Virus record (IMG/VR): IMGVR_UViG_3300028898_000252
Span: 285,946 to 349,945 of that record
DNA: 64,000 bases
Origin: a virus
Lineage: Duplodnaviria; Heunggongvirae; Uroviricota; Caudoviricetes
Strand: one strand, 5' to 3'
In this document: piece after piece, positions 17,779-61,523 of the stretch
Position numbering within the stretch: position 1 is the first letter of the stretch
Layout: each line of letters begins with the position of its first letter
Position numbers and translations under genes: made by a program
The notes under the pieces: generated by a model
What the model saw: the letters and a program-made list of their open reading frames with translations, nothing else
What the model was told of the DNA's origin: nothing
The model's database searches: none

Positions 17779-17865
17779 TTGAAATTGTTTCTCCCTTCTG
17801 TCTATCTCTTAGCACAATCCACGAAGGTTTATTTACCTTGCGAGAAGTATGCCAAGGGAAAGATA

Positions 17866-17900
17866 GAAAAGAAAACGACCCTGAGTGTATCAGGGTGGTT
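17866..17900 (-). terminator. Intrinsic terminator
   Basis: ACCCTGA-TACAC-TCAGGGT then CGTTTTCTTTT. Confidence 0.6.
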
Positions 17901-17928
17901 CTCTCGAAACGATCAAAGCGAGTTTGAT

Positions 17929-18168
17929 TCAGGGTGCCCGCTCGAAAACGGTTTCATCGTTGCGTCGAATTCGGAACTCTGCTGCGCTCAGGTGAGCGAA
18001 AGAACCACCGCGCCCGAATTCGGGGTGGGTTCCGTTGACGAGTTGTTTTGCGTAGCGAGCATCCTGCGCGTCGCGAATGGTTGCAAAATCCAACCATTTG
18101 CCATCGCGCTTGATTTGCGCAACGTCATATTCCTTGAAGGTGTATTCCGCGGGCTGTGTTTTGTGCAT
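17929..18168 (-). CDS. Hypothetical protein (island cassette)
   Basis: 79 aa, GAGG RBS, follows element 18214. Confidence 0.7.
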   Translation of the reverse strand: MHKTQPAEYTFKEYDVAQIKRDGKWLDFATIRDAQDARYAKQLVNGTHPEFGRGGSFAHLSAAEFRIRRNDETVFERAP

Positions 18169-18249
18169 AGTTTGAATTCCTCTCTCTGTGAATATGGTTT
18201 ACCACAATTCTTGGAGGTTTATTTACCTTTCAAGAAGTATGCCAGTCGA

Positions 18250-18684
18250 TCAGTCTTCGCTGATATCCTCCTCTGCCATATCTTTCAGATATGATTCGAA
18301 CGAGGGAGCATTCCAATCACATCCGTATTCGTAGTCGCCTCCGCCCTCGTAATCTTCTCGGTTTTCTCGCCTTTTGATGCGATCGAGACATTCGTTGAGC
18401 GTATACTTGCGAAACGACCTGTTTTTTTCTTCGGAGTAGTTCCGCTCTTCGATTTCCAGCGAACGAAAATCGAGTTCAGACTCTTCGGTTTTGAGCCACA
18501 TTTCTTGCTCGTCTTCGAGGGTTTCGTCGATTCCCTCGGCGATTGCTTGCTTCTCGGTAACACCTTGCGGGTTGCTGAATCGCAAAGTCTTTTCTCTGCG
18601 GCTGTTACCGAGAATGCGGTTAAGGGTAAACCTATCGTCAATATCGAGACGAGCAACAAAACCGCGGCGATGGTTGGTTTTCAT
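18250..18684 (-). CDS. Hypothetical protein starting MKTNHRRGF
   Basis: ATG 18684 with GGAAGG RBS, follows element 18728. Confidence 0.7.
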   Translation of the reverse strand: MKTNHRRGFVARLDIDDRFTLNRILGNSRREKTLRFSNPQGVTEKQAIAEGIDETLEDEQEMWLKTEESELDFRSLEIEERNYSEEKNRSFRKYTLNECLDRIKRRENREDYEGGGDYEYGCDWNAPSFESYLKDMAEEDISED

Positions 18685-18769
18685 TCTGTTGATCCTTCCG
18701 TGGTTATCTCTTACCACGTTTGGCTCTGAATTATTTACCTTGCAGGGACCGTGCCATCGCGGATTCTGA

Positions 18770-18816
18770 AAATAAAAAATGGGCTACTCGGGTGCTGGTT
18801 AGGCACTCGGTAGCCC
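18770..18816 (-). terminator. Intrinsic terminator
   Basis: GGGCTAC-CGAGTGC..GCACCCGA-GTAGCCC then ATTTTTTATTTT. Confidence 0.75.
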
Positions 18817-19003
18817 GTGAGCGGAAACGGAATCTCCGTTTATTTGTGGATTGAAGGGAGCACGTCGCGCGCTCAACCTCGGTTGAAGGGTAGGAAACAA
18901 CAGCAAGAGCGACGAATAGGGTTGCGATTGTTTAGCTCCTCTCTGTGTTTAGGTTTAGCACACCCTTGAAGGAATTATTTTCCTTTCAAGAGATATGCCA
19001 GTG

Positions 19004-19129
19004 TTAGCGGTTGCCGTTTTTGAGGTTGAGGGTTTCGGTTGCCTTTGCGATCATTCCACCAGCGACGAGCGCGGCGAACATCATCACGAAGGCGAAAGCT
19101 GCCCCGTTGGCGAACGTGTTAGCGATCAT
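19004..19129 (-). CDS. 41-aa single-TM peptide (not in ORF track)
   Basis: MIANTFANGAAFAFVMMFAALVAGGMIAKATETLNLKNGNR; AAGGA upstream. Confidence 0.55.
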   Translation of the reverse strand: MIANTFANGAAFAFVMMFAALVAGGMIAKATETLNLKNGNR

Positions 19130-19259
19130 GGGTTTGTGTGGTTTCCTTTCGCTGGCGACGAATCACCGCTGCAACCTCAACGATGCTGTAGGTTGTGCGC
19201 GCGATGGCGAGAATCAACAGAACGATCATAGAGAAATGGTTGTCGATGGAGGGTTCCAT
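19119..19259 (-). CDS. 46-aa hydrophobic peptide (not in ORF track)
   Basis: MEPSIDNHFSMIVLLILAIARTTYSIVEVAAVIRRQRK...; GAGG RBS after element 19300. Confidence 0.6.
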   Translation of the reverse strand: MEPSIDNHFSMIVLLILAIARTTYSIVEVAAVIRRQRKETTQTHDR

Positions 19260-19338
19260 TTGTTTTCCTCTCTGTGAGTATGTCTTAACATACCATTGAA
19301 GGATTTATTTACCTTTCAAGAGGTGTGCCAAGGTTTCG

Positions 19339-19569
19339 TCACTGGTCGGAAGGAAACCAACCCTTCACAACGGCGTTGTGGGCAATTCCAAGACGAAACA
19401 CCTGGGATCGTACTCGAATGCCGCTCGAAGCATTGAACACCTTGATTGAGGCATTCAGGGCGTTTGGGGCGGCATTCAGAGCAGCGGCGAACGCCTCGTG
19501 TTCGGTTGCTCCGAAACCGCTAGCGCTCAGTCCCGTTTGATTACGGGTCCATCGAAATTTACCTTGCAT
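19339..19569 (-). CDS. Hypothetical protein
   Basis: 76 aa; TAATG coupling with upstream ORF. Confidence 0.6.
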   Translation of the reverse strand: MQGKFRWTRNQTGLSASGFGATEHEAFAAALNAAPNALNASIKVFNASSGIRVRSQVFRLGIAHNAVVKGWFPSDQ

Positions 19570-19781
19570 TAGTTCATCACCCTTTCAGGTGCGGTTGAGG
19601 GATCGTGACCGAGGTTGAAAGCGGAGCGAAACAACTGTGCTTGCTCGCGCGTATCCGTGAAATGATCGAACACGGCCCCAGTCACGTCGGAGCGAAAACG
19701 GACCCTCCACATTTCACGCGGCGGGCGTTGGTTGCGAAGAAAAAACGCCTTCAACTTTTCGAGAAGTAACTTGTCGAGCAT
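19569..19781 (-). CDS. Hypothetical protein
   Basis: 70 aa; GGAGG RBS; follows element 19846. Confidence 0.7.
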   Translation of the reverse strand: MLDKLLLEKLKAFFLRNQRPPREMWRVRFRSDVTGAVFDHFTDTREQAQLFRSAFNLGHDPSTAPERVMN

Positions 19782-19928
19782 GACAACCTCCGTTCTGTTT
19801 GACCGTTTCGAATTCCCTTGTGAGTATGTCTTATCACACTCAGTTAAGGTTTATTTACCTTTCACAAACCATGCCAAGCACAGTTTATGAAAACTTTGTT
19901 TTCAAGACCTATGCCAGACTTTTGCCGC

Positions 19929-20312
19929 TCATGCAAACTTGCATGCCGACAAGGTTTTCATCACGGAATACATCCTGTCGATGACCGCGGGGACCTTTTT
20001 GTCGTTGTCGTGGTAAAACATGTTTGCGGCGAGAATAACATTTCTAATCGCCTTGCGCTTGTTCATTCCGACCGCGATATGCACCGCACCGCCACGAATT
20101 GCGATTGAACACCTCCAGCCGTGATCGCGTACGGCATCGAAAACAACATTGACAGGATTGACGCGATTGTTATTCAGCAGGTCGACCAATTTTTCGACCT
20201 TCGCGCCCCCGCTGTAAACCTCGATAACGGCGGCTTCGAGCAAGGTATTGAACCTTTGCTCTCTTGCTTCGATGGCTCGAAAGAATGCCTTGAATGATTC
20301 GAATTGTTCCAT
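19929..20312 (-). CDS. Hypothetical protein
   Basis: Start reassigned to MEQFESF with AAAGGG RBS. Confidence 0.65.
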   Translation of the reverse strand: MEQFESFKAFFRAIEAREQRFNTLLEAAVIEVYSGGAKVEKLVDLLNNNRVNPVNVVFDAVRDHGWRCSIAIRGGAVHIAVGMNKRKAIRNVILAANMFYHDNDKKVPAVIDRMYSVMKTLSACKFA

Positions 20313-20494
20313 TGTGAAACCCTTTCGTTGGAGAATGACAGCCGCAGAAATAGGATTTGCACCTACAGTTTCCTCTGTTTTGCAGAGGTTTTGGCCACGA
20401 TTCGGCACGGGACCTATTCCCGTTCTGCGGTATAGACTTGTTAACACAACCTCGAAGGTTTTATTTACCTTTCAAGAGGTGTGCCAACGAAGGT

Positions 20495-20707
20495 TTAGTC
20501 GTGATACCAAACATCCTCGCCGTGAATGTTTTTCGACGGAAAAACAACCGTATCCGTGTCCTCGTTGTGCTTCGTGACAGCGAACATCACCTTTCGCTGA
20601 GCGTTGCGCAGCACCTTGCGAGCAAAGCGCTTGAAACCATTGTGAAAGTGGCGATGGTGGGAGTCCTCGCTGCGAGCGGTGAATCCTCGACGGTGGTTCG
20701 TTTTCAA
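20495..20707 (-). CDS. Basic peptide starting MKTNHRRGF
   Basis: 70 aa, TTG start, GGGAG RBS, follows element 20750. Confidence 0.65.
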   Translation of the reverse strand: MKTNHRRGFTARSEDSHHRHFHNGFKRFARKVLRNAQRKVMFAVTKHNEDTDTVVFPSKNIHGEDVWYHD

Positions 20708-20844
20708 TTCCGTTCTCCCTTCTGTCTAGGTCTTAACACACTCTATCGTGAATTATTTTCCTTTCACGAATCGTGCCAAGGTTGACCAAGAGGCTGTCTC
20801 GGTGGGTTGAGGCATTCAGAATTAATTTCAAAATCTGTGCCGCG

Positions 20845-20874
20845 AAAATAAAAAAGCCCCGATTCGCTCGGGGC
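20845..20874 (-). terminator. Intrinsic terminator
   Basis: GCCCCGA-GCGAA-TCGGGGC then TTTTTTATTTT. Confidence 0.8.
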
Positions 20875-20912
20875 GTGGCGGGTTTGGTTATGTATCCAAA
20901 CCAATTGGTTTC

Positions 20913-21287
20913 TCAATCCTCGTTTTCCGACGAGAACGCGATCGAACGAATTCCGATCTCATGGTAGTTTTTCCATGAGAATGTCAGCCGCTTCGAATCG
21001 TCATCGCAGCCTTTCAAAACGACGTGCGTGCAATCCCCCGATTGCGTGACGACCGAAGCGACCTCCCACAATTGCGAGCCGTGCGCTCGCTTTCCCTTCA
21101 CTTCGAGAATGTCACCAACCTTGACGCGCGAAAGGATGATCCACACGGGATCGCGTCGCGTTCGGTCCGAAACTTGAAATTTTCGTTCGGTCAAGTCATC
21201 GTAGAGGCGGCGAGCCTTCGTGTTTTCATTCGCCCACGCGCGAAACGAACCGATGATTGCCGAGAGGATATCCTTGTTGTTGCTCAT
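20913..21287 (-). CDS. Hypothetical protein (possible SH3-like C-terminus)
   Basis: 124 aa; VKVGDILEV. Confidence 0.65.
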   Translation of the reverse strand: MSNNKDILSAIIGSFRAWANENTKARRLYDDLTERKFQVSDRTRRDPVWIILSRVKVGDILEVKGKRAHGSQLWEVASVVTQSGDCTHVVLKGCDDDSKRLTFSWKNYHEIGIRSIAFSSENED

Positions 21288-21335
21288 GTTTCTTTTCTCT
21301 TTTCTTTTCGTTGAAGTTGATTGAAGGGTTGGTTT

Positions 21336-21710
21336 TCAGAGAGAGAGGGCGAAAGCGATATCGAGAGCAACAGGGGTTTTGTTTTCCTCCGTTACTCCGT
21401 TGTACTTGATCGCGTGTTCCGCGAGGTTGTAGTGGTCAATCAATTCGACCTCGCAAGGTAGGGGAGTGTTGCAGGCGAGCCGCGTAATCGGAGGCATTTT
21501 TTTGTCTCCGAAAAGTTTTACCAACAAAAACTCTGTTCCGTATTGACCAGTGGAGGCGGAACTTGCGGTCAATTGGTAGACCGCAGAAACCTCTTTGCGG
21601 CCTTTCCGAAATGACAGCAAGAAAAACCTTGCAACCTTGACAAACACCGTAATCGAACAACCGAGTGTTTCGGTGTTGATTCGATCACCAACCTTGAAAA
21701 GATGGTTCAT
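21336..21710 (-). CDS. Hypothetical protein
   Basis: Start reassigned to MNHLFKVGD with AAGGGA RBS. Confidence 0.65.
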   Translation of the reverse strand: MNHLFKVGDRINTETLGCSITVFVKVARFFLLSFRKGRKEVSAVYQLTASSASTGQYGTEFLLVKLFGDKKMPPITRLACNTPLPCEVELIDHYNLAEHAIKYNGVTEENKTPVALDIAFALSL

Positions 21711-21866
21711 TCGTTTTTTCCCTTGTTGCTTGACGAAAACCTTGTCGGCGACTGGCTTATCGACAATAATTTTCTTGGGGTTGCGAGACAGGGTGATTCC
21801 TGGCCAGTTTCTATCTCTTATCACAGCTTTCAGCATTGAATTTTCCTTTCAAGCGCTATGCCAAGA

Positions 21867-22049
21867 TTACCTTTTCCGTTGTTTGATTTTCGAACCAGAG
21901 GGCACCACGAGAAACCATTCGAACCTGTTGACAATTGCATTCCAAACCTTGTATCTCCGAATCACTCTCGTGTAGAGAGCACCTTGACGCAGGGTTTCGA
22001 GGTATGAGTCGAACGGACCCAGGTGGTTTTCTGAATAACAGTCGCCCAT
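21867..22049 (-). CDS. Hypothetical protein
   Basis: 60 aa; AAGGTGA RBS; follows element 22101. Confidence 0.65.
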   Translation of the reverse strand: MGDCYSENHLGPFDSYLETLRQGALYTRVIRRYKVWNAIVNRFEWFLVVPSGSKIKQRKR

Positions 22050-22136
22050 TCGTTCACCTTCCCTTGCTGGCGTGTCTACCTCATATCACGATTGATTCTG
22101 TTTTATTTTCCTTGCAGGGATCATGCCAGCAGTGGA

Positions 22137-22355
22137 CTACTTCGAAACCTCAACTCCAATAATCAAAACCATCGGAGGCTCGCCTACAGAAGTCTCGAAA
22201 CCAGAAACTTTCGTCTGGAAAACTTCATCCTTCTCTGGATTATCCATGAGAGCTTCATTCAGTCGGAGGATCAACCTTTGCGCTTCATCACGCGAAAGGC
22301 CGATAACCAAACGATTTTTGAAAATCTCGTCTGCGGTTTTTTCCCAGTGCGCCAT
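22137..22355 (-). CDS. Hypothetical protein
   Basis: MAHWEK start, AAGGA RBS; follows element 22399. Confidence 0.65.
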   Translation of the reverse strand: MAHWEKTADEIFKNRLVIGLSRDEAQRLILRLNEALMDNPEKDEVFQTKVSGFETSVGEPPMVLIIGVEVSK

Positions 22356-22490
22356 GATCTTTTCCTTTCCGTGGTTATGATCTAACACATTCAGCTCTGA
22401 ATTATTTACCTTGCAGGGATCATGCCAACCACGGGAGATTGAGAATTATTTTCAAATTGCTGCGGCACAAAAAATGCAGGGCCAAAAACG

Positions 22491-22530
22491 ATAAAAGGGC
22501 AACCCGCTTGTTAAAGCGAAGTTGCCCCTT
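22491..22530 (-). terminator. Hairpin/terminator after the tRNA-ncRNA operon
   Basis: GGGCAAC-TTCGCTT..AAGCGG-GTTGCCC then TTTTAT. Confidence 0.65.
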
Positions 22531-22569
22531 TGGGTTTATTTACTTTGCAAACCGTGTGCCAACGTTTAG

Positions 22570-22644
22570 CGTCTCTGATAGGACTTGAACCTATGACCTA
22601 CCGCTTAGAAGGCGGTCGCTACTATCCAACTGAGCTACAGAGAC
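22570..22644 (-). tRNA. tRNA-Arg(UCU)
   Basis: GTCTCTG/CAGAGAC acceptor, TAGCTCAGTTGGATAG D arm, ACCGC-CTTCTAA-GCGGT, GGTTCAAGTCC; CCA not encoded. Confidence 0.92.
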
Positions 22645-22649
22645 AAAGC

Positions 22650-22732
22650 GTCTCGTAACGTTACTGTGCGCCGCTTACACTACGGTTTTGAGGCCGCGGA
22701 GAGTCGAACTCCGTCTGCAACGTTTCCGAGAC
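22650..22732 (-). ncRNA. Circularly permuted tRNA-like RNA (YrlA/Y-RNA-like)
   Basis: Order stem - T arm (CGGAG-TTCGACT-CTCCG) - closed acceptor hairpin - TA - D arm (GTGT-AAGCGGC-GCAC) - stem. Confidence 0.7.
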
Positions 22733-22919
22733 TGAAACAGTCTACAGGAGCACTGTTTCGATGTGCAGTCGATACGCAATCCGTCTCGTAACGTCATCGC
22801 GACGTTGGATTGTCCACTATTGGCAATCAACCTTTCGAGGTTGACTCTCGCTCTCGCCGCGAGAAGGCTAGTGGTGCTGAGAGCATATAATACCGACATA
22901 TCCCCTCGGTTAACGGGTT

Positions 22920-22988
22920 GACTGAGCGGTTTAACTGTTTAACCTAACAGGTTACCCTGTGCAGGATTCGCACCCGCATATCTCAGTC
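22920..22988 (-). ncRNA. Circularly permuted tRNA-like RNA (YrlA/Y-RNA-like)
   Basis: GACTGAG-ATAT-GCGGG TGCGAAT CCTGC-ACAGG GTAA CCTGT-TA-GGTT AAACAGTTA AACC-G-CTCAGTC. Confidence 0.72.
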
Positions 22989-23197
22989 GGTGTGATGGTG
23001 GTTTGTATTGTTTCACTAGCATTCAGTAACCATCGGTACCGAATGCCAGCGGCCACGATTTATTTAACCCAACACCGAGCATTGTGGCTTGTTTGGTATT
23101 GGACCACGGAATTATTCTCCGTGGATTTGCTTTCCTTAAATGGTGGAAAGCACGACAGCGTTTACGACTCCATACTATATGTCGCCTCTAGCATGAA

Positions 23198-23262
23198 TGG
23201 TGCTCTCATATGGACTCGAACCAATGCCTAGCAGCGCGGTTAAGCGCTCTAGGTATGAGAAC
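23198..23262 (-). ncRNA. D-armless tRNA-like RNA with encoded ACCA
   Basis: GTTCTCAT/ATGAGAGC-ACCA, CCTAG-AGCGC-TTAACC-GCGCT-G-CTAGG, TGG-TTCGAGT-CCA. Confidence 0.7.
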
Positions 23263-23387
23263 ATGTTTTATGTTAAGGAATCTATCGTTTTGACGTTGTT
23301 GCCCCGATCGCCTCGCTCTCTCTGTCTACATTCTAGCGCGACCGAGCAAGGTTTATTTACCTTTCAAGTATCGTGCCAGGGAAAAGG

Positions 23388-23516
23388 GTACCGCCGCGGG
23401 AATCGAACCCGCTTTAGACGTTCTAGCCAACGTCTAAATCTCCAAGGTAGAACCCCATAGTTTTATCGGTGCTTGACTAGAGCGCCCGCTATGTTGTCTA
23501 ACTTTAGGTAGCGGTA
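23388..23516 (-). ncRNA. 129-nt tRNA-like RNA (acceptor + T arm + two long hairpins)
   Basis: TACCGCT/GGCGGTA, GCGGG-TTCGATT-CCCGC, TTTAGACGTT/AACGTCTAAA. Confidence 0.65.
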
Positions 23517-23519
23517 TAG

Positions 23520-23602
23520 TGCCAGCAACGGGACTTGAACCCGTATGCCCTTGCGGACGGCGGATTTTGAATCCGCTGCGTATTCCATTCCGCCACGCTG
23601 GC
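23520..23602 (-). tRNA. tRNA-Leu(CAA)
   Basis: GCCAGCG/TGCTGGC-A, GCGGA-TTCAAAA-TCCGC, long variable arm GTCC-GCAA-GGGC, GGTTCAAGTCC. Confidence 0.93.
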
Positions 23603-23949
23603 ATTTGTTCTGCAATCTCGTTTGCAGAGGACGATACCGAGACACATTCTAATATGCGGCTCGATATTAACACGCTGGGATGACACAATGATCATCCGTG
23701 TGGTACAGCTTAGTTTGATATGTGTACCTAGTTCACAGCCCGCGGTTTTCATTGGCTGCAAAACAAGTTGTGCCAGTCACTTAGCCCGTGTTTGCAGGAT
23801 ACGCGCACGCCGACTAGCTTACGCTCGCGTTTCCGACGTATGGGATATATTACCGTTCACTCGCTTTCCTTTTCGTTGCTGCCCGCCCCATGAATCTCTC
23901 TTACCACACCCGAGCAAGGTTTATTTCCCTTGCAAGCGCTATGCCAGGG

Positions 23950-24189
23950 TCAGAGCGCGACCACCGCGAGGGTTTCGCGACCGTTTTCCCACGGGCAGAG
24001 CCACGCTTTCGCGTAGCCGTTGGGTGCTTGCACGATCACGGGATTACGGGGCGACGCCCGTTTCGCGCGGCAAGCGCGGACGATTTTGTCCACCCCAGAA
24101 TCGATAGAATAGTGAGTCACGAATGTAGCTGCCGTTTCGTTGAACTCGAACACCACTGCTTTCGAATCGTTCACTTTTGCATCCTCCAT
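23950..24189 (-). CDS. Hypothetical protein
   Basis: 79 aa between elements 24221 and 23916. Confidence 0.6.
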   Translation of the reverse strand: MEDAKVNDSKAVVFEFNETAATFVTHYSIDSGVDKIVRACRAKRASPRNPVIVQAPNGYAKAWLCPWENGRETLAVVAL

Positions 24190-24254
24190 CCCCCATAATC
24201 TTATGTTAGTACAACCGAGCAGGGTTTATTTACCTTGCACAAGCCATGCCAGAG

Positions 24255-24617
24255 TTAGACCTTGGCGGAATCCTCCGCTCGACGAATAACCCACCATTCG
24301 GTTCCCGCGCCGTCGCGGTCGATTTCACCCACAAGGATGAATTCATTGCTGAGCATATCCATAAACACGCCCTCCCATGCCCCGCGGGTTGTTCGAACGG
24401 ACACACCGAGGATTCTGGAAAACTCAGCCGCAGCCGCAGATTTTCTGACTACGGACGAAAGATTTGTCTTCCGAACGTCGATCTTTCCGCCGCCGCTCAA
24501 TTCGAGCTCGAAACCCTCTTGGGTTTGCTCGATCGCAGTCACGGGAATGAATTCGAGATTCAACCGTTGACGAGCGACGATATTCAAATCGAGACCATCC
24601 GACACAATGCAGTCCAT
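24255..24617 (-). CDS. Hypothetical protein
   Basis: 120 aa, AAGGG RBS, follows element 24669. Confidence 0.7.
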   Translation of the reverse strand: MDCIVSDGLDLNIVARQRLNLEFIPVTAIEQTQEGFELELSGGGKIDVRKTNLSSVVRKSAAAAEFSRILGVSVRTTRGAWEGVFMDMLSNEFILVGEIDRDGAGTEWWVIRRAEDSAKV

Positions 24618-24710
24618 TGTTTGAAACCCTTTCTTCGTTGGTGTGTTCTCTGTATAGCAGACCCTAGCAAGGTTTATTTACCTTGCAATCGGTATGCCAA
24701 GGATGATTAG

Positions 24711-24781
24711 TAGGTCCAGAAGGAATCGAACCTTCGTTAACTGGTTAAAAGCCAGCTACTCTACCATTGAGTTATGGACCC
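24711..24781 (-). tRNA. tRNA-Lys(UUU)
   Basis: GGGTCCA/TGGACCT-A, GCTGG-CTTTTAA-CCAGT, GAAGG-TTCGATT-CCTTC. Confidence 0.93.
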
Positions 24782-25130
24782 TTAGAGCGCCGCTGTTTAC
24801 CAACGATTCCCCGTATGCGGGGCAACCTCGGGACAGCGGGCGGTTTTGCACCATTCTTTTATTCGTTTTAGGCCGAATCACACCCGTTAGGTAGCTATCG
24901 GCCTATCGTTTACGACGATACATCAGCGTTTCCTCTTCGCTATATTATTAGAACCTACGCATGCGCGCGGTAGGCTTATGGGTTCGAGGTAGTGAATGCG
25001 GAATGACCCGCGCCCGTATCGTGTTGGCAGCGTGCGGTTTCGCTCGGTATCCGCTGCTAGTTTTACCGATCGACTAGCAACCGCTCAGTGGAGCGGCTGA
25101 CAAGGTGTGTGTAGCACGACTCGGCAGGGT

Positions 25131-25469
25131 TTATTTACCTTGCACCGTCTGTGCCAGCGGGACGCCGCCCGACCACGGGGCATCGTCGATCATTTCGAAA
25201 ATGGTTTGAATTTCCTCGACTGAAAGAGTGGTGTCGTGATACCACTCCGTCAACCTTCGGTCGAAAGCGTCGGCAAGGTCGCGGGTTTCAGCGAATTCGA
25301 ATTCGACCTCTTCGAACATCGAATTGTAAAACCTCGGAGGTTGCTCGCCATTTGCCGCGCGGTGTTCGATGATCGCCTGCTCGCATTCTCCCACGAATTC
25401 GGCGAGTTGTTCTCGCGAATAACCGCGGAGTTTCAGCGTTTGCAATTCTGAGAGATTCTTCGTCGACAT
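25131..25469 (-). CDS. Hypothetical acidic protein; stop codon supplied by the next element
   Basis: MSTKNL start; ends LAQTVQGK-TAA, the translation of element 25126-25156. Confidence 0.65.
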   Translation of the reverse strand: MSTKNLSELQTLKLRGYSREQLAEFVGECEQAIIEHRAANGEQPPRFYNSMFEEVEFEFAETRDLADAFDRRLTEWYHDTTLSVEEIQTIFEMIDDAPWSGGVPLAQTVQGK

Positions 25470-25546
25470 TTTCTTTCGTTGCTCCTCTCTGTGGGTATGT
25501 CTTACCACACCCTTGAAGGAATTATTTACCTTGCAAGCGGTGTGCC

Positions 25547-25579
25547 AAAAAAAATAGGCTTGGAATAGATCCGAAGCCT
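25547..25579 (-). terminator. Intrinsic terminator
   Basis: AGGCTT..AAGCCT then ATTTTTTTT. Confidence 0.65.
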
Positions 25580-25769
25580 CTCACCATTCGTTATATCGCC
25601 TTCAACCGCAAGTTAACTTAATAACTCGCTGAATGGCCGCACTCCCAGGCATCGCGCTATGGACTAGCCTTATGGTTGCGCTTTGTTATGGCCGCTTGCA
25701 CGGTTTGGTTGAAGCAATGCCGTTATCCAACGGCGGTATTGGCTTGACAGAGAATCCTGTTCTCTGTCA
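25580..25769 (-). ncRNA. Candidate structured ncRNA downstream of tRNA-Ile
   Basis: No minus-strand ORF; long-range pairing TTGCTTCAACC/GGTTGAAGGCGA plus two hairpins. Confidence 0.45.
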
Positions 25770-25846
25770 TGGTAGGCGTAAATGGACTCGAACCATTGAC
25801 CCCACGGTTATAAGCCGTGTGCTCTAACCGACTGAGCTATACGCCC
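25770..25846 (-). tRNA. tRNA-Ile(UAU)
   Basis: GGGCGTA/TACGCCT-ACCA, CACGG-CTTATAA-CCGTG, AATGG-TTCGAGT-CCATT. Confidence 0.9.
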
Positions 25847-26037
25847 AACGAATGCGGCCTCGCCTTATTCAGCGCCCGCGGTGAATGCTAACCAGCTTGT
25901 CACGGCCAGTGCATTATTTTACCTGCTTTCCGTATCGTTGCGGGTTGAGGTTTTGAGGCAACCTTGCTCGTTGCCCCGTGAGTATGTCTTAGCACGACTC
26001 GGCAGGGTTTATTTGCCTTGCACCGTTCGTGCCAGGG

Positions 26038-26346
26038 TTACGCCAGCTTCGACCACGCCAGCGCGAACAAACGCACGGCGAAAGCCAGGGCGAAAACCGC
26101 AGCGCTCACCCTTGCAATCCCCAGCGCGTTTTTTGACGTTCCGTAACCGTACTCGGACGCAAGAAAACTGTTTGTCAGCCTCTCAGCGATCATGGAAACC
26201 ACGAAAAGCGATCCAAACAACAACAGGTGTTGTCCTGCGGAGAGCGAGAGAAACATCCCGAAAAACGTTCCGATCGCGCCCGAAGCGATGGCGAGCACAA
26301 GCAACACAGCCGCCGCGACTGCGGCGAAAACCTTACCAAAGGTCAA
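26038..26346 (-). CDS. Small multi-pass membrane protein
   Basis: About 3 hydrophobic segments; TTG start just after the upstream stop (start uncertain). Confidence 0.6.
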   Translation of the reverse strand: MTFGKVFAAVAAAVLLVLAIASGAIGTFFGMFLSLSAGQHLLLFGSLFVVSMIAERLTNSFLASEYGYGTSKNALGIARVSAAVFALAFAVRLFALAWSKLA

Positions 26347-26348
26347 GG

Positions 26349-26729
26349 TTACGACCTTCGCGAGTGTGACGCGCGCTGGAGAATCGGAAGACCAAGAACA
26401 CCACTCGGTCCAACCTTTGCAAACGCATCGGTTTGCTCGTTGCCGCGTTCGCCAGGGACGAAAAGCGTCACCTCGGCATAGCGGTTGCTGTGCCCCGCGC
26501 AGCACTTGGTTTCACTCGAAACCGTTGCGCGCCAGTCAGAAGCGGAAAAAAACTTTTCCGTTTCCTTTCCCGCAGCGTCGTGTCGGATCACTTCGACCGC
26601 GTAGCGCTCCAATTGGAGCCGTTCGCGGAGTTCATCGGCGTGCATTTCCGCCGCTGTGCGTGTGTCGAGCTCCATTCCTTCATCGAAGGAAACATCGCCA
26701 CTGTCTGAACCATTCACTTCGATCGTCAT
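26349..26729 (-). CDS. Hypothetical protein
   Basis: 126 aa, GGAGGT RBS, follows element 26797. Confidence 0.7.
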   Translation of the reverse strand: MTIEVNGSDSGDVSFDEGMELDTRTAAEMHADELRERLQLERYAVEVIRHDAAGKETEKFFSASDWRATVSSETKCCAGHSNRYAEVTLFVPGERGNEQTDAFAKVGPSGVLGLPILQRASHSRRS

Positions 26730-26831
26730 TGCCTACCTCCATGTAGGGTTGCTAGAGGTTATCTCCAGCAACAACTTTTGAATAACACAACCCTCGAAGG
26801 TTTATTTACCTTGCAGGGATCATGCCATTCT

Positions 26832-26892
26832 TGGAGGGCTTGGGAGAATCAAACTCCCCGCAAAGTTTTTGCTTTGCGAACCATTAAGCCCT
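26832..26892 (-). ncRNA. Minimal tRNA-like RNA (acceptor + T arm + one hairpin, TCCA end)
   Basis: GGGCTT/AAGCCC-TCCA, GGGAG-TTTGATT-CTCCC, GCAAAG-CAAAAA-CTTTGC. Confidence 0.55.
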
Positions 26893-26897
26893 TGCGG

Positions 26898-27380
26898 TCA
26901 CTCCGCTAGTGCCGCCTGAATCTCGGAAAGTTTCTTCTCGAAGGTGAAACGAGTTTCGAAACGCTCGCACACTTCGCGCAATTCCTCGAAACCACTCGCG
27001 ATTTGTTCGAGCGAATCGGGGTCAACCTCGTTGGGCGCGGTGCGGTCGACCAGCTTCGCATACTCGGTCAACTCGATTCCGAATTGAGCGCCGCGCCAAT
27101 CTCCGTTAGCGTCGCGGTAGTTGAGCACACGCTTTTCGAGCGCGTACATGATCGCGCCGTCCACATCACCCGCCTTTTGCGCGGTGCGCAGCTCGACCAG
27201 CTTCCGATACGACGCGCGCAGGTTTTCCACACCCGCGACGATCATATCAAACTTCTCGTCGACATTCGCGTTTCGAAACGCCGCCAAGTTTTCGAGCGGC
27301 TTGTGCTTGCACGCGTCGAACGAGCGCGTGGCTTCGAGAAGAGCCGCCTTATCTGCAACAACAACAACGTTCGTTCCCAT
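26898..27380 (-). CDS. Hypothetical helical protein
   Basis: MGTNVV start; GC3-rich codons; follows element 27467. Confidence 0.7.
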   Translation of the reverse strand: MGTNVVVVADKAALLEATRSFDACKHKPLENLAAFRNANVDEKFDMIVAGVENLRASYRKLVELRTAQKAGDVDGAIMYALEKRVLNYRDANGDWRGAQFGIELTEYAKLVDRTAPNEVDPDSLEQIASGFEELREVCERFETRFTFEKKLSEIQAALAE

Positions 27381-27612
27381 TTTTTTCTTTTGCTCCAATG
27401 TTTGAAAAACCGTTCACTTGCTGTGTGAGCACCGTTGCTCACACTCTCTACTTAGCACAACTCGACAAGGTTTATTTACCTTGCAGGGTTCATGCCAAGC
27501 GTGGCACTTCCGCCGAGGGTTGCACTCGGCATAGCTATTGCTTGTTAGCTTTAGCTATCGTGTCCTGGTGACACCGAAAGTGTTTTGTTCTGCCCCTTTC
27601 GGGGCGAGGGTT

Positions 27613-28236
27613 TCAACCCTCGGCGGTTTCGTCGTCGGTCGCAGCGTCGAGCGCTTCGAGCGCGGGCGAATTGCTCAGGTCGGTTGCAGCCGCGCCAGCA
27701 AACCGCGACGGAGGCGCGGAAAGCGCGACGACACGCGCCGTGCGCGCAGGCTTCGCGGGCTTGGGAGCCTCGGGAGCCTTGGGTTTGATTCCGAGCATCG
27801 CAGCGACCGAGGTTTGCGGCGCGTTGGGATTGATTCGCGCGATTCCCGCGCACTCCATTGCAGCGCGGAAGGTTTCGATCAGTGACAGCGCCTCGATCGC
27901 GCAACCCGCGCTATCGCGCGAGTGGAGCACGAAAACGTTGTCGCGACCGATGACCTCACTGCCGTACACGACCTCGCCGCGAACGATGCGAAGCAACAGC
28001 GTCGAGCCCGCCGTGTCCGAGTTTGGCCCGCCGCGCGCGGCGCGCACGCCTTCGAGCAGCGCGAGCGCCGAGCCGCCTTCGTCATCGGTCAAGCGGAACA
28101 TCACGGGCTCTTGTGGCTCGATCCACAGATCAGACTTCGACGCGTCGCCGCCCTCGCCGCACTGCTCGCGAACGTGCGCAACGAGCGCCGCGAGAACCAT
28201 TCCAGCGACAACCGAACGAACAGAATTCTTGCTCAT
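27613..28236 (-). CDS. Hypothetical protein with A/P-rich disordered C-terminus
   Basis: MSKNSV start; follows element 28332. Confidence 0.7.
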   Translation of the reverse strand: MSKNSVRSVVAGMVLAALVAHVREQCGEGGDASKSDLWIEPQEPVMFRLTDDEGGSALALLEGVRAARGGPNSDTAGSTLLLRIVRGEVVYGSEVIGRDNVFVLHSRDSAGCAIEALSLIETFRAAMECAGIARINPNAPQTSVAAMLGIKPKAPEAPKPAKPARTARVVALSAPPSRFAGAAATDLSNSPALEALDAATDDETAEG

Positions 28237-28331
28237 GTTTTTTTCTCTCTTTTCTTTCGTTTTGTGAACTCGCGAGCACCGCAACCGTGCGGTGCATCAT
28301 CTCTTGTGAATCTCTCTTAGCACGACTCGGC

Positions 28332-28362
28332 AAGGTTTATTTACCTTGCACCGTCTGTGCCA
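28332..28362 (-). promoter_or_regulatory. Representative sigma54-type -24/-12 promoter
   Basis: TGGCACAGACGGTGCAAGGTAAATAAACCTT; GG-N10-GC; upstream of the ORF starting at 28236. Confidence 0.75.
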
Positions 28363-28532
28363 ACCTAACAACCATCGAAACTCACGTTCGCAGGTTAGGT
28401 GGGATGGTACGAATGTTGTTTGTTCGTGCCGTCCCGTCTACTCTGCAACCGATACCCTGTCATGTGCTCTGTCTAGCACACTCTCGGAAGGTTTATTTAC
28501 CTTTCAAGTATCGTGCCAGGACAGTTTCAGGC

Positions 28533-29054
28533 TCAGTCGTCATCGGCAGCATCGAAAAACTTGCCGATCGCGAGGAATTCACCGCGAGTGCAAGCGGCGT
28601 GCCACTCAGGATTCGAGCCCGTCCCGTTTGGAATCGGGCTGAAATTCAATTTCTGTACCATCGTGCGGCGTGCTTTGAATTCGGCGAATCCTGGGAATTC
28701 AACCGAAGCAAGCACCGCGCCGTTGTTTTTCGACCAGTCGTAAAAGTACCGTTGTTTTCCGACGGCACCGTCGTCGGCCAGTGGGGCAACAACGAGACAG
28801 CTTGTTCCTCGCGCCCCGCGTGAGGAATGATTCCCCAGCAAAATGAATCGCCGCTTGTTGATTCGCACAGTTGAATACTTTGGCGCTGCTTTTGCAGCAA
28901 GCACCGTATCCCGCTGAAACTCGCTGAATTCATCGTAGTCAGGCGAATCCCGCTTGATTCGCCCCTGGCGAGCACCTTCGCCTGCGGTACAGTCAAGGTC
29001 GAGCCTTTCAGGCTCGACAACATTGTCATTGTCATTGTCGTTTTCGTTTGCCAC
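28533..29054 (-). CDS. Hypothetical protein
   Basis: GTG start with GAGGAG RBS; NDNDND microrepeat; follows element 29098. Confidence 0.7.
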   Translation of the reverse strand: MANENDNDNDNVVEPERLDLDCTAGEGARQGRIKRDSPDYDEFSEFQRDTVLAAKAAPKYSTVRINKRRFILLGNHSSRGARGTSCLVVAPLADDGAVGKQRYFYDWSKNNGAVLASVEFPGFAEFKARRTMVQKLNFSPIPNGTGSNPEWHAACTRGEFLAIGKFFDAADDD

Positions 29055-29296
29055 TCGCTGTGCTCCTCTCTGTGAATCTCTCTTAGCACGACCGACCAAG
29101 GTTTATTTACCTTGCAGGGTTTGTGCCAACAACCTTGGTCGTTGGAGTTTCGAGCGAAACGCGGCGATCGTCCGTCCCGCCCTGTGTTCTCTGTCTAGCA
29201 CAACCCAAGGTGCTTTATTTACCTTGCAAGCATCATACCAGGGTTGGGCGTTTGGCGCGGTGCGAGCCTCTATCGACCGCGCGTACACGCGTGCGT

Positions 29297-29370
29297 AGCA
29301 TAAACCATGCCAGGTAAGACTACCTAAAAAAACCGTTGGCATGATACTTGCAAGTGGCATGGTTTATGCC
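29297..29370. promoter_or_regulatory. Divergent cluster of three GG-N10-GC boxes at the right island edge
   Basis: Minus 29297-29312; plus 29337-29352 and 29355-29370; perfect 15-bp inverted repeat 29298-29312/29355-29369. Confidence 0.75.
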
Positions 29371-29485
29371 TTCGCGGGGCAACCCTCAACCGTTACCATA
29401 TATGGCAGTATGAAACACCTAAACATTTAGTGAAATGAAATTTAATGAAACTAGGTATGAATTTTATTTGTACTAAGGTTTAGAG

Positions 29486-29959
29486 TTAAACTTTGTATTT
29501 TATAAAAAGAGTTTCGAGTTTTGTTTTAAGTTCTGGATAATGATAAAGGAAACTTTTATTCTTTTTTGGATCAAGGAGTCTTTCGTAAATTTGTTTGTAT
29601 GAGTTTCTCTCAAGCCACGAGAGATAAGCTGAAATAAACTTATCATCTTCGAGATAGTCAAACAAAGTGACTTCAACCATTTCAAAAAATGTTTCTTTGT
29701 CGAGTTTAATTGTTTTGGAGCATATTAGAGCATAATATGCACAAAGTTTTTTGATAAGAAACTCATCATTTTCAAAATCAAGAACTTGTGGTTTTTGGGC
29801 TTTGGGAGAGGAAGTATTCCAGTTTTGGGAAACAATTATTGTCGATTGTGATTCATGTGCGGTAATTGTGTTATAAGAAGGGTCAAACAAAATGGCACGG
29901 TAATCACAACCTGTAAATGTTTTAACAAAGGTTTTGAGTTCTTTGTTTTCAAGTTTCAT
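29486..29959 (-). CDS. Hypothetical protein
   Basis: MKLENK start with AAGGAGG RBS. Confidence 0.75.
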   Translation of the reverse strand: MKLENKELKTFVKTFTGCDYRAILFDPSYNTITAHESQSTIIVSQNWNTSSPKAQKPQVLDFENDEFLIKKLCAYYALICSKTIKLDKETFFEMVEVTLFDYLEDDKFISAYLSWLERNSYKQIYERLLDPKKNKSFLYHYPELKTKLETLFIKYKV

Positions 29960-30121
29960 TGTTTTGTTGCCTCCTTTTTTTGATTGTTTTGTTTCAACCC
30001 AAACTCTTATTGTTTTGGGTTGATTTATCTTAGCCGCAAACCTTATAAAAGGTTTGGGATTTAAGCTTTGAATTAATATGATAAACATTTAGTATTTTGA
30101 CCCTCCCCTCCCCTTAAAAGA

Positions 30122-31300
30122 TTAATTCTTTTTAGAGTTAAGCTGCGAAAGGTTTTCTTCAAGGGCTTGGTCAATAACTTGCAAAGTATCTCTAAACTGT
30201 TGAGTAAAACTATCAGTAAGGGCTTTGAATTCTTTCTTGAGATTCACATTATCGTTTTCGGCGGAATACCATTCGATTCTGAATCTATCAATAACTTCTG
30301 AATACTGGGAAAGGAATTCAAGTCCTTCGCAGATTGATTTATCAAACACTTCAATTGGATAGTTTCTCAGGTCGAGGCCGTTTGCCTTGAACAAGTTTTC
30401 GTAGGCAAACTTTGCAAGAAACTTTCCAATGAAGCCGAATTGATCTGTAACCTCTTCTTCGTTGTTTATTTCAATAGAAGGAATATAAACAGTCCATTTA
30501 TCAAGTGGAGAAATAAGAGTTTTGTTATCGTCTCTTGCCGATGATCCTGCGTCGGCGAATCGCATAATAACAAATGGTCCATATTGACCATCCCCAGAAT
30601 AAACTTGATAACCAACCATTCCTTTCGGAAAAGGATTCTTTCCTCGCTTTGCCGCGACAGAATAGTTGATTCCAAGGTTCATGTTTCGATAATCAGACCT
30701 TCTTTTCGATTCTTTCCATTCTGCCTTTTTAATATTGTTTTCAATTTCGATTTGCTGAAGGTGTTTGTTGTACAGATTCATAATCTCTTCATCGGCATCA
30801 ACTTCAACAAAAAGACCATCCTTTTTAAAGGATTTTCCTTTGTAGAAAACAGGAGGCAAATAAACATTACTTGTTTGAATGTGTTCAGCTGCAAACTTTT
30901 TTTCTTCTTTAAGATAGTAGGTGATAACAAGACTGTCATTATTCAAACCATCATAGTAATATGAATTCATTTCAACATTCACAATTGGATTTGATGGGTC
31001 GATAATATATTTCTCTGTGACTGAAATCCAGCCATATTTGTTGACGATTGGTTCTTGTGCCTGAAACATTTCAAGATACTTTTTTTGGATTGCCTCGAAT
31101 TCTTCTTTCTCGTGCAAGTAATACACAGGGGAATTTGAACATGTTTCATAGTTTTTCAATTCCTCTTCGGTCATTTCGTTTCTGCGGCGAACTCTCTTTT
31201 CGACAAGTTCGCTGTAATTCAGTTTTTTTCTCAATTCCTCGTGAGCTTTGTATGCAGGGTTTTCATCCGTTCGGAACACACTCAACGACTTTGCGACCAT
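30122..31300 (-). CDS. Hypothetical protein under the outlying element 31407
   Basis: 392 aa, GGGAG RBS. Confidence 0.8.
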   Translation of the reverse strand: MVAKSLSVFRTDENPAYKAHEELRKKLNYSELVEKRVRRRNEMTEEELKNYETCSNSPVYYLHEKEEFEAIQKKYLEMFQAQEPIVNKYGWISVTEKYIIDPSNPIVNVEMNSYYYDGLNNDSLVITYYLKEEKKFAAEHIQTSNVYLPPVFYKGKSFKKDGLFVEVDADEEIMNLYNKHLQQIEIENNIKKAEWKESKRRSDYRNMNLGINYSVAAKRGKNPFPKGMVGYQVYSGDGQYGPFVIMRFADAGSSARDDNKTLISPLDKWTVYIPSIEINNEEEVTDQFGFIGKFLAKFAYENLFKANGLDLRNYPIEVFDKSICEGLEFLSQYSEVIDRFRIEWYSAENDNVNLKKEFKALTDSFTQQFRDTLQVIDQALEENLSQLNSKKN

Positions 31301-31572
31301 GTTTTTATTTCTCCCGAGTGAATTGGTTTTTGTTGCCCCGATTATCGCTGCGGTGAGCCTCTATCACTCGCGCGATCACGAGCACACGCATAGCACAATC
31401 CCCCGCGGATTATTTACCTTGCAACGACCGTGCCAGCTACCGAGGGCAAGAGGATTCGACCCCGCAAAGTTTGCAGGTTTCGCGAGCCTTTCAGTGTAAC
31501 GGTTACCCGAAACAAACGATCAAACAAGAAAAACAAAAGTGTAATGAAATTAAATCATATTAATTTCAATAG

Positions 31573-50897: not shown

Positions 50898-51194
50898 TCA
50901 TTCTTCTCCACAAGCAAGAGAACGGTCCATCCAATAAAGTTCATTAGACCTAGTTCTAACTCTAACAAATGTTTTGTCTTCAATTGTTTGGATTCCAACA
51001 ATCTCAAGTTCTGAAGTAGGATCTTTTTCTTCTTCGAGTTCTGGAAACAAACTATCGAAGTAATAAATTGCATCAATCTTTTCAAAAACTCGATAAATTT
51101 TATTGTCGTGTTCTATCAACTCTGAATATGCAATTGCCGTTAAAAGCTTATGAAAGAAAACGGATTCTCGATTTACTTTGACGGTTTCCATCAT
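50898..51194 (-). CDS. Hypothetical protein
   Basis: 98 aa, coupled to the ligase stop. Confidence 0.65.
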   Translation of the reverse strand: MMETVKVNRESVFFHKLLTAIAYSELIEHDNKIYRVFEKIDAIYYFDSLFPELEEEKDPTSELEIVGIQTIEDKTFVRVRTRSNELYWMDRSLACGEE

Positions 51195-61019: not shown

Positions 61020-61523
61020 CTATATGAATCCTCTGTAAGAACCATAATCTTCATATCCATACTCTTCGTGGTATTCTGTAAGAGAATCATCTCTCGTATA
61101 TTGTTCCATACCAAGAAGTTTCAAAACAAGATGATTTGGAGCAATCATTCTTTTTGCCTCAAGTTCTGTGTACCTAGCTGGAATTCCAAACTTAAGTTCC
61201 GCAAACTTTCCAATCGCAGACGAACGAGAAATCCCCGCCATACAATTCACAACAAGGATAAACTCTTGAGAGTTGTTTATATGATGATTAAAAATAAAGT
61301 TCTTTACTTTTCTTGCAAGATTTTTTGTAAATGCTTTCCGACTTGTTTTGTCTGTGATATCATCAAAAAACAAAGGCAAAGTATGTTTGTTACCACCAGA
61401 AACAAGTCGTTTCTTTTGATCGTTTGCAATGGTAATCCAAGCAACTTTTTCCCCAAGCTTTTTTAACTGAGGAACTATTACCTTTGCAGTTTCTCGATCT
61501 GTCACAATGATTTGCTTTACCAT
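61020..61523 (-). CDS. Protein-tyrosine/dual-specificity phosphatase-like protein
   Basis: CX5R loop VNCMAGISRS, upstream FDD, downstream PN. Confidence 0.85.
   Translation of the reverse strand: MVKQIIVTDRETAKVIVPQLKKLGEKVAWITIANDQKKRLVSGGNKHTLPLFFDDITDKTSRKAFTKNLARKVKNFIFNHHINNSQEFILVVNCMAGISRSSAIGKFAELKFGIPARYTELEAKRMIAPNHLVLKLLGMEQYTRDDSLTEYHEEYGYEDYGSYRGFI

Follow-up and report, generated by a model that had tools for sequence, protein, structure and literature searches.

Can a phage carry tRNA mimics of the kind known from Y RNAs when its genome has no Ro60? This question is raised by an 83-base element (E2, positions 22650-22732) just upstream of a tRNA-Arg gene in a 64,000-nucleotide (nt) stretch of viral DNA, here called the window. 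The window covers bases 285,946-349,945 of a complete virus record of 390,884 base pairs (bp) with direct terminal repeats (IMG/VR record IMGVR_UViG_3300028898_000252, Caudoviricetes). The 391-kb phage is uncultured and its whole genome contains 33% G+C; E2 lies in an island of about 14 kb (window 17.1-31.4 kb) with 46-58% G+C. An original prediction, made from the letters of the window alone, had described E2 as a permuted tRNA mimic. Fold, descriptor matches and core residues support this description, and we conclude that E2 is a genuine tRNA-derived, structured and circularly permuted module. All positions are those of the window unless another record is named, and the features described lie on its minus strand.

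E2 folds as a permuted tRNA on a long closing helix

The minimum free energy fold of E2 calculated with RNAfold (-29.6 kcal/mol, z -2.2; 3 of 200 shuffled sequences folded equally well) is a tRNA-like fold in rotated order on a long stem, with a closing helix of 6 + 8 bp around a GA/A internal loop (14 bp, interrupted) and three hairpins. This is the fold drawn in the original prediction, including the UUCGACU T loop, the GG and the interrupted 14-bp helix, and the sequence given there was likewise correct. The element (22650-22732) is supported by this fold, by a descriptor match and by the same fold in an orthologue from a metagenome contig (L024), the latter two described below.

Read from its 5' end, E2 starts with the closing helix's 5' strand, GUCUCG-GA-AACGUUGC (22717-22732), which is followed by a 3-nt 'variable' segment AGA (22714-22716) and by a T-arm mimic, CGGAG-UUCGACU-CUCCG (22697-22713), with the pair G53-C61 and the loop residues U54, U55, C56, G57 and A58. 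Abutting the T arm is a closed acceptor-like stub, CGG-CCUCAAAA-CCG (22683-22696), with only 3 bp and an 8-nt loop. A UA linker (U8 and A9), a D-arm mimic GUGU-AAGCGGC-GCAC (A14, R15, G18 and G19) and a single A at position 26 come next (22665-22682), and the 3' strand of the helix, GUAACGUU-A-CGAGAC (22650-22664), completes the element. As read from the sequence, 12 of the 14 conserved tRNA core positions are present: U8, A9, G10, Y11-R24, A14, R15, G18, G19, G53-C61 and U54-U55-C56-R57-A58 are in place, and A21 and Y48 are missing. The junction linkers measure 3/0/2/1 nt in the permuted order, as against 2/1/4-5/0 nt in the standard tRNA order. In the model that follows from the fold, the closing helix (14 bp; 16 bp in L024) would stand in the place of the anticodon stem, with the D arm predicted to stack on the helix and the T arm on the stub.

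Parts of E2 can be read directly as tRNA sequence. T arms identical to that of E2 and followed by CGG are present in ordinary phage tRNAs, and CGGCCUC-A in the stub region reads as a full acceptor 3' strand with its discriminator. The Rfam models of tmRNA and mascRNA gave partial alignments in which the T arm continues into the acceptor 3' strand; apart from these T-arm fragments nothing in Rfam matched, and E2 was rejected as a member of a known family. Other assignments were rejected as well. The sole open reading frame (ORF) that overlaps E2 (22675-22899) is broken by insertions and deletions in L024 and has no Pfam match, which speaks against a protein-coding sequence. A miniature transposon with 16-bp inverted ends is contradicted by the single copy in the genome and by the lack of a target duplication. 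An attP-like tRNA 3' fragment appears unlikely, since no integrase context is visible and the element lies inside a non-coding RNA unit.

The architecture occurs twice in one unit and is not due to chance

A first element of the same architecture, E1 (22920-22988; fold z -3.9), was found by descriptor and fold 190 nt upstream of E2. It consists of a T arm, a 5-bp acceptor hairpin closed by a GNRA loop, UA, a D arm and a G, on a closing helix of 10 bp. Global alignment of E1 with E2 gave a z score of 1.5, i.e. no detectable sequence similarity, and the two mimics are thus sequence-unrelated, as had been stated originally. Next to E1, a 25-nt insertion (AACCCGUUAACCGAGGGGAUAU..., 22895-22919) that is absent from L024 interrupts the closing stem of 10 bp at a GUC repeat; it can itself fold into a small hairpin.

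The common architecture was expressed as a descriptor in which a T stem of 5 bp with the loop U[UG]CRA is followed, after 0-1 nt, by a hairpin of 3-7 bp, after 2 nt by a D arm of 3-4 bp and after 1 nt by the closing stem, which must have 5 bp or more; in a strict form, the linker must be UA, no gap is allowed and the closing stem must reach 7 bp. Core residues of tRNA that lie outside the T loop did not enter the descriptor. In the 390,884-bp genome, searched on both strands (782 kb), it matched E1, E2 and four weak sites with A/U-rich stems in AT-rich regions. Dinucleotide-preserving shuffles of the island yielded 0.0075 matches per shuffle (3/400), and the strict form had no match in the 400 shuffles. 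Among 376 kb of other loci, which included a phage array of 29 tRNAs, only the two L024 orthologues were matched. The descriptor was composed after the elements had been seen, with linker lengths taken from tRNA and YrlA geometry, and its significance is inflated by this; the margin over chance is nonetheless several orders of magnitude. A chance origin of the architecture of E1 and E2 is ruled out by this comparison with the shuffles. It had been argued before that two mimics in one transcript make chance unlikely, which the descriptor bears out; the two lie on one strand with no terminator between them and would be transcribed together.

E2 shares the layout of YrlA but none of its other testable defining features

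YrlA (Y RNA-like A; Rfam RF02553) is a tRNA-like Y RNA bound by Ro60/Rsr of bacterial and mycobacteriophage origin (Chen et al. 2014, PMC4201824). The tRNA-like domain of E2 has the same order, with the T arm, a closed acceptor-like hairpin, UA and the D arm on a helix made from the 5' and 3' ends, and also has the canonical T loop and G18 G19; moreover, in both cases more than one such RNA would come from a single precursor. In contrast to YrlA, E2 has no match to the Rfam model, no Ro60/TROVE gene and no GNCGAAN0-1G Ro-binding motif, it is fused to a real tRNA 5 nt downstream, and its outer stem copies the acceptor end of that tRNA. Binding of Rsr and tRNA-type modifications (pseudouridine and dihydrouridine) are further features of YrlA.

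The Infernal search with the YrlA model that the original prediction had suggested gave no match to E2, neither at the gathering score nor, with E values of up to 10, in searches of 5 kb, 501 nt or 106 nt. Within the region, E1 alone gave a YrlA signal, with 25.1 bits (E 0.0038 in 501 nt) at a gathering score of 69. TROVE/Ro60 had no match at E values up to 1 in a six-frame search of the complete 390,884-bp genome with PF05731, in which the controls were matched, and RtcB is absent from the complete phage genome too. In the published cases, YrlA and Ro60 are encoded on the same strand, no more than 4 kb apart (PMC4201824). A regular-expression search of the minus strand from 23400 to 22480 found no GNCGAAN0-1G motif. 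E2 thus resembles YrlA by its layout and lacks every other testable feature that defines membership.

Tandem tRNAs yield YrlA-like false positives (Chen et al. 2014, PMC4201824), and E2 has in common with tandem (dimeric) tRNA genes that a T arm is followed by a D arm and that the T arm with CGGCCUC-A reads as a tRNA 3' end. It differs from them in that the acceptor strands form a closed hairpin of 3 bp and the outer strands pair over 14-16 bp. Neither ARAGORN nor the Rfam tRNA model called a tRNA at E2, and real tRNA arrays do not match the descriptor.

The species 1 and 2 RNAs of phage T4 are small, stable non-coding RNAs of unclear function, which are co-transcribed with phage tRNAs and released by tRNA processing. 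E2, as a non-coding RNA within a phage tRNA transcription unit, can be likened to them by description only; we know of no permuted tRNA architecture described for these T4 RNAs. In permuted tRNA genes of the Cyanidioschyzon merolae type, the 3' half is encoded before the 5' half and the ends are at the anticodon side; these genes mature to normal tRNAs, which possess an anticodon loop and an acceptor stem of 7 bp. E2 also has its 3' half before its 5' half and its ends at the anticodon side, but it cannot become a decoding tRNA, because it has neither a 7-bp acceptor stem nor an anticodon loop, and with its closed 3-bp acceptor it was rejected as a permuted tRNA gene (such genes are mentioned in PMC3400036 and PMC4090602). 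We regard E2 as a YrlA-like tRNA mimic, presumably Ro60-independent, that is fused to a tRNA; permuted mimics as such have already been published for Ro60 systems.

The outer stem of E2 repeats the acceptor end of tRNA-Arg

The neighbouring tRNA-Arg (anticodon UCU, 22569-22644) was identified with ARAGORN and with the Rfam tRNA model (62.6 bits). E2 ends at 22650 and the tRNA starts at 22644, so that the distance of 5 nt reported earlier is correct; the spacer between the end of E2 and G1 of the tRNA reads GCUUU (22645-22649), and RNase P would be expected to cleave here. The outer GUCUCGG of the E2 5' strand resembles the acceptor 5' strand of tRNA-Arg, GUCUCUG, and the E2 3' strand with the next two bases (GC) nearly repeats the tRNA 3' end, CAGAGAC-GC. 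Compared with the acceptor stem and discriminator of tRNA-Arg (GUCUCUG/CAGAGAC-GC), the outer stem of E2 matches in 6 of 7 pairs and in both trailing bases. In L024, the outer 7 bp of E2 and the two following bases read GUCUCGG/CCGAGAC-GC, where this genome has an A mismatch in place of the second C. Global alignment of E2 with tRNA-Arg gave a z score of 4.0 (0.8-3.0 with the other tRNAs of the island). Because of this alignment and of the match between outer stem and acceptor end, E2 is a chimera, composed of a core of permuted tRNA, an extension of 9 bp and the copied acceptor end of its neighbour. As a consequence of the copy, a set of strands is interchangeable: the 5' and 3' strands of E2, an upstream 13-mer and the 5' and 3' acceptor strands of the tRNA. 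The tRNA-Arg orthologue of L024 (L024:735-811, minus strand) has two anticodon-stem mismatches (GACGC/GCGAA) and a better D stem, and may represent a decaying tRNA or sequencing errors.

The 13-mer in question, ACGTTACGAGACG, has exactly two copies in the window (minus strand, 22649-22661 and 22782-22794), compared with 0.01 expected. The original prediction had noted this recurrence, and the upstream copy, ACGUUACGAGACG (22782-22794), is indeed exact. According to counts and folds, it can pair with the E2 5' strand instead of the E2 helix; folds of longer contexts contain this pairing, in agreement with the suggestion that the duplicate strand could allow alternative pairing. The other suggestion, that it marks a decayed third mimic, was rejected, since the surroundings of 22782-22794 contain no remnant of a T arm or D arm and no significant fold (z -0.44). 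The exact identity over 13 nt is peculiar to this genome: in L024 and in a second contig, L041, the 3' strand reads ACGTTTCCGAGACG. If the state in L024 and L041 is the older one, the two changes that make the E2 3' strand identical with the upstream 13-mer look like a conversion event. Thermodynamic folds of long contexts misfold the genuine tRNA, and we take them only as showing that alternative pairings exist.

E1, E2 and tRNA-Arg lie in one unit of a tRNA-containing island

From end to end, E1 and E2 span 339 nt within one promoter-to-terminator unit amid phage tRNA genes, and no protein gene directly precedes this unit. Its presumed promoter is the nearest upstream copy of a sigma54-like element, TGGCAC-N6-TGAAAGGTAAATAA (23353-23378), which would drive transcription towards tRNA-Arg. 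Between 23378 and 22569, a simple scan detected no terminator on the minus strand. Behind the tRNA, a two-tier G+C-rich hairpin with a U run (22484-22528) is the presumed intrinsic terminator, and it follows another promoter-like copy at 22535-22561. The general form of the element, TGGCAY-N6-..AAGGTAAATAA, has 19 strict copies in the genome, and 19 of 19 lie in the island on the minus strand (17800-31440). By Pfam, the phage has no sigma54 DNA-binding domain. Among the families listed by Pfam scans of 144 ATG-started frames of 170-340 amino acids across the genome and of 20 frames of the island, DUF7873 did not appear. The motif ACAGCAA is absent from both strands between 22560 and 23400, and a six-letter repeat track was not found either.

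Other parts of the unit and its surroundings are structured as well. A 65-nt D-armless tRNA-like RNA ending in ACCA (23198-23262) has a weak match to the Rfam tRNA model (16.1 bits) and a fold z score of -4.7. Just downstream of tRNA-Leu, a tRNA-like fragment (23385-23470, fold z -2.0) contains a 10-bp hairpin that runs straight into the canonical T arm GCGGG-UUCGAUU-CCCGC, and GGCGGUA. The segment 22810-22885 matched an Rfam model of the hepatitis delta virus ribozyme type with 17.3 bits, compared with a gathering score of 44, and this match is probably meaningless; the segment contains conserved hairpins.

In the island, RNA cassettes are interspersed with small orphan ORFs, and none of the 20 island frames belonged to a significant Pfam family. 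Four of the 21 phage tRNAs lie here (Arg-UCU, Leu-CAA, Lys-UUU and Ile-UAU). The 17 further tRNA genes are in the AT-rich part of the genome (G000:C1:12500-37300 and 61455-61526), have no island promoter element and, by descriptor, no permuted mimics. By Pfam, the phage carries RNA ligase domains, a Thg1-like enzyme and a TRM5/TYW2 methyltransferase, and no CCA-adding enzyme. An ORF at 51191-52288 has an RNA ligase domain (PF09414) and a PHA02142 OB-fold; the batch scans, which give families without assigning each to a particular ORF, also listed a weaker second RNA_ligase, a Thg1-like tRNA-His guanylyltransferase, a TRM5/TYW2 methyltransferase domain and two metallophosphoesterases.

Conservation of the unit in metagenome relatives

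Neither IMG/VR nor the GenBank phage set contains close kin of this phage. The island promoter pattern had 0 matches in IMG/VR and 16 single, apparently chance matches in bacterial genomes; of 37 metagenome loci with the pattern, only about eight short contigs are real pieces of the island. These contigs are short, have low coverage and come from the same or a closely related phage; L024, L041 and the contigs of ERZ724522 point to activated sludge as the kind of sample that holds this phage. Patterns of the E2 and E1 cores retrieved only ordinary tRNAs or nothing from IMG/VR, blastn of E2 against 50,697 phage records gave T-arm matches only, and protein-guided searches for related phages found none with the island. 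In the metagenome relatives, cassettes are swapped at promoter repeats: in L024, an ORF cassette replaces the terminator of the window after the promoter-like copy at 22561.

L024 (WBZO01074134.1) covers the whole unit with 88% identity. Its E2 differs in four places: a G->A change that converts a G-U into an A-U pair, A->G at position 26, and an extra U and an A->C change in the 3' strand. The L024 sequence adopts the same fold with a perfect closing helix of 16 bp (-38 kcal/mol, z -4.3; 0 of 200 shuffles equally good), and this fold dominates the local ensemble with a pairing probability of 0.97. The pairings of E2 are thus retained, unproven by covariation. L041 (UPTA01185309, from activated sludge) has the L024 form of the E2 3' strand. 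At its position ~949, which corresponds to window 22699/23051, it carries a 351-nt deletion at a microhomology of 2-3 nt; as the coverage is about 1.5x, this contig may be a natural deletion variant or an assembly chimera.

Parts of the unit outside E2 show signs of structural selection at the RNA level when compared with L024. The tetraloop of E1 changes from GUAA to GAAA, and its extended closing stem, which tolerates the 25-nt insertion in this genome, has one compensatory pair (A-U -> G-C). The conserved hairpins of 22810-22885 include one with a CGAA -> UUCG loop exchange. In the 65-nt tRNA-like RNA, the long hairpin has compensatory changes: one compensatory change and one pair kept as G-U (AGCGC/GCGCU -> ACCGC/GUGGU).

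Discussion

What could a permuted tRNA mimic do in front of a phage tRNA? The explanation that we prefer, to which we give a probability of roughly 40%, is that E2 forms the 3' module of an RNA of about 340 nt with two mimics, which serves as leader of the tRNA-Arg precursor, is released by RNase P and presents tRNA elbows without Ro60. E1 would form the 5' end and E2 the 3' end of this structured non-coding RNA. As 5' leader of the precursor of tRNA-Arg(UCU), it would be transcribed from one of the sigma54-like promoters repeated in the island, and RNase P, cutting at G1 of the tRNA 5 nt after E2, would free it in such a way that its 3' end is the stable helix of E2. The free RNA would then most likely show tRNA elbows, formed by the kissing T and D loops, to proteins that recognise the shape of tRNA, and so act as a Ro60-independent scaffold or decoy in the contest of phage and host over tRNA damage and repair. 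Transcription, release by RNase P, stability and protein binding are the steps that we infer here; the analysis itself shows the sequence, the fold, its non-randomness, the tRNA-core residues, the lack of Ro60 hallmarks and the fact that one relative has conserved the element.

This explanation is favoured because the architecture is convincing only twice in 782 kb, both times in one unit, because this unit is non-coding and has no minus-strand terminator from the promoter copy at 23378 to tRNA-Arg, and because the E2 of L024 folds identically and other parts of the unit show signs of RNA-level selection. A further reason is the investment of this phage in tRNA biology (21 tRNAs, a Thg1-like enzyme, RNA ligase domains and a TRM5/TYW2 methyltransferase). 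RNA repair sets are known from jumbo phages, a few of which have Ro/TROVE together with a tRNA-like partner RNA (PMC7824862). Phage tRNAs counter tRNA-cleaving defences (PMC10264068, PMC11464382, PMC11555353). In a bolder form, which we consider unlikely, E1 and E2 would be the two ends of a Ro60-independent, Y-RNA-like particle RNA that, once released by RNase P, recruits or sequesters proteins that read tRNA shape through its two elbow mimics, and the copied acceptor end would make it a processing twin of tRNA-Arg. Candidate partners of such a particle would be host defence nucleases that target tRNA, or the Thg1 and RNA-ligase repair enzymes of the phage.

Several observations weigh against a leader RNA with two mimics. 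In contexts of 168-271 nt, the E2 helix is not the favoured fold in this genome. In L041, window 22700-23050 is missing and with it E1 as well as the 5' half of E2; the RNA may hence be dispensable. Comparison of E2 with L024 reveals no compensatory change; all helices are kept in this single full orthologue, and the divergence is too low for covariation to appear. With 4.8 events per 100 nt, E2 changes at the same rate as one flanking spacer (4.7) and half as fast as the other (10.3). If the L024 and L041 state is older, all three changes in the closing helix of this genome weaken the helix. Moreover, the acceptor stub of 3 bp is shorter than in described YrlA RNAs, and no partner protein was identified, as the genome contains neither TROVE nor RtcB.

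In the main rival explanation, E2, and likewise E1, would be neutral debris of tRNA duplication and rearrangement in a highly recombinogenic cassette island, would be transcribed only as part of a leader and would have no role of its own. Cassettes are indeed shuffled at promoter repeats, as the ORF cassette of L024 and the microhomology deletion of L041 illustrate; the T arm of E2 with CGG does not differ from the 3' part of ordinary phage tRNAs, and its outer stem copies the acceptor end of tRNA-Arg. The missing covariation in E2, the weaker helix compared with L024 and the known YrlA-like false positives from tandem tRNAs (PMC4201824) fit this explanation as well. However, debris would hardly give two sequence-unrelated elements with the same precise linker geometry in one unit, and a tandem-tRNA junction leaves 5 bp, far fewer than the closing helices of 14-16 bp in E2 and 10 bp in E1. 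Real tandem arrays gave no descriptor matches. In addition, the conservation of E2 (4.8 events per 100 nt compared with L024) is no lower than that of the functional tRNA-Arg (7.9), and E1 combines a GNRA-preserving loop change with a compensatory pair. Taken together, we regard a neutral origin as somewhat unlikely.

A different role is conceivable if E2 acts in cis on the maturation of tRNA-Arg, either as a leader or switch that toggles between a tRNA-permissive and a trapping form, or with its long helix as a processing site of the RNase III type. The strands would allow this: GUCUCGG and GUCUCUG have CGAGAC (in two copies) and CAGAGAC as interchangeable partners, the exact duplication of the 13-mer exceeds chance, and the outer stem, which resembles an acceptor, is separated from the tRNA by 5 nt. 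In folds predicted for contexts of 168-416 nt, the upstream copy pairs with the E2 5' strand and the E2 3' strand with the tRNA 5' strand, and the G->A change of L024 improves both of these alternative pairings. But these long-range predictions misfold a bona fide tRNA and carry little weight, and in L024, where the E2 fold dominates, no switch is predicted. No such element precedes the other three tRNAs of the island, tRNA-Arg persists in L041 in the absence of the E2 5' strand, and the mimicry of the tRNA elbow by the core would be left unexplained. A cis-acting role therefore appears distinctly improbable.

That E2 is a true YrlA-class Y RNA, for which the phage supplies only the RNA and the host Ro60/Rsr, we consider very improbable: the layout of T arm, closed acceptor, UA and D arm on a terminal helix and the signal of E1 speak for it, and against it stand the lack of an E2 match at E values up to 10 on 106 nt, an E1 score far below the gathering score, the absence of TROVE and RtcB from the phage, in contrast to the published YrlAs with Ro60 at most 4 kb away (PMC4201824), and the absence of the GNCGAAN0-1G motif from the unit.

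The mimicry of tRNA by Y RNAs has been published only together with Ro60. Here, two unrelated permuted mimics are present in a jumbo phage without Ro60, in a predicted RNA fused to a tRNA precursor. Even if E2 were only a relic, it would document the decay and recombination of tRNA genes in a cassette island. If the RNA is stable and binds protein, it would be a natural example of a mimic built from tRNA parts, with a permuted core and a copied acceptor stem, and would provide a handle on what such mimics do; tRNA-elbow mimics would then be a viral tool more general than the Ro60 system.

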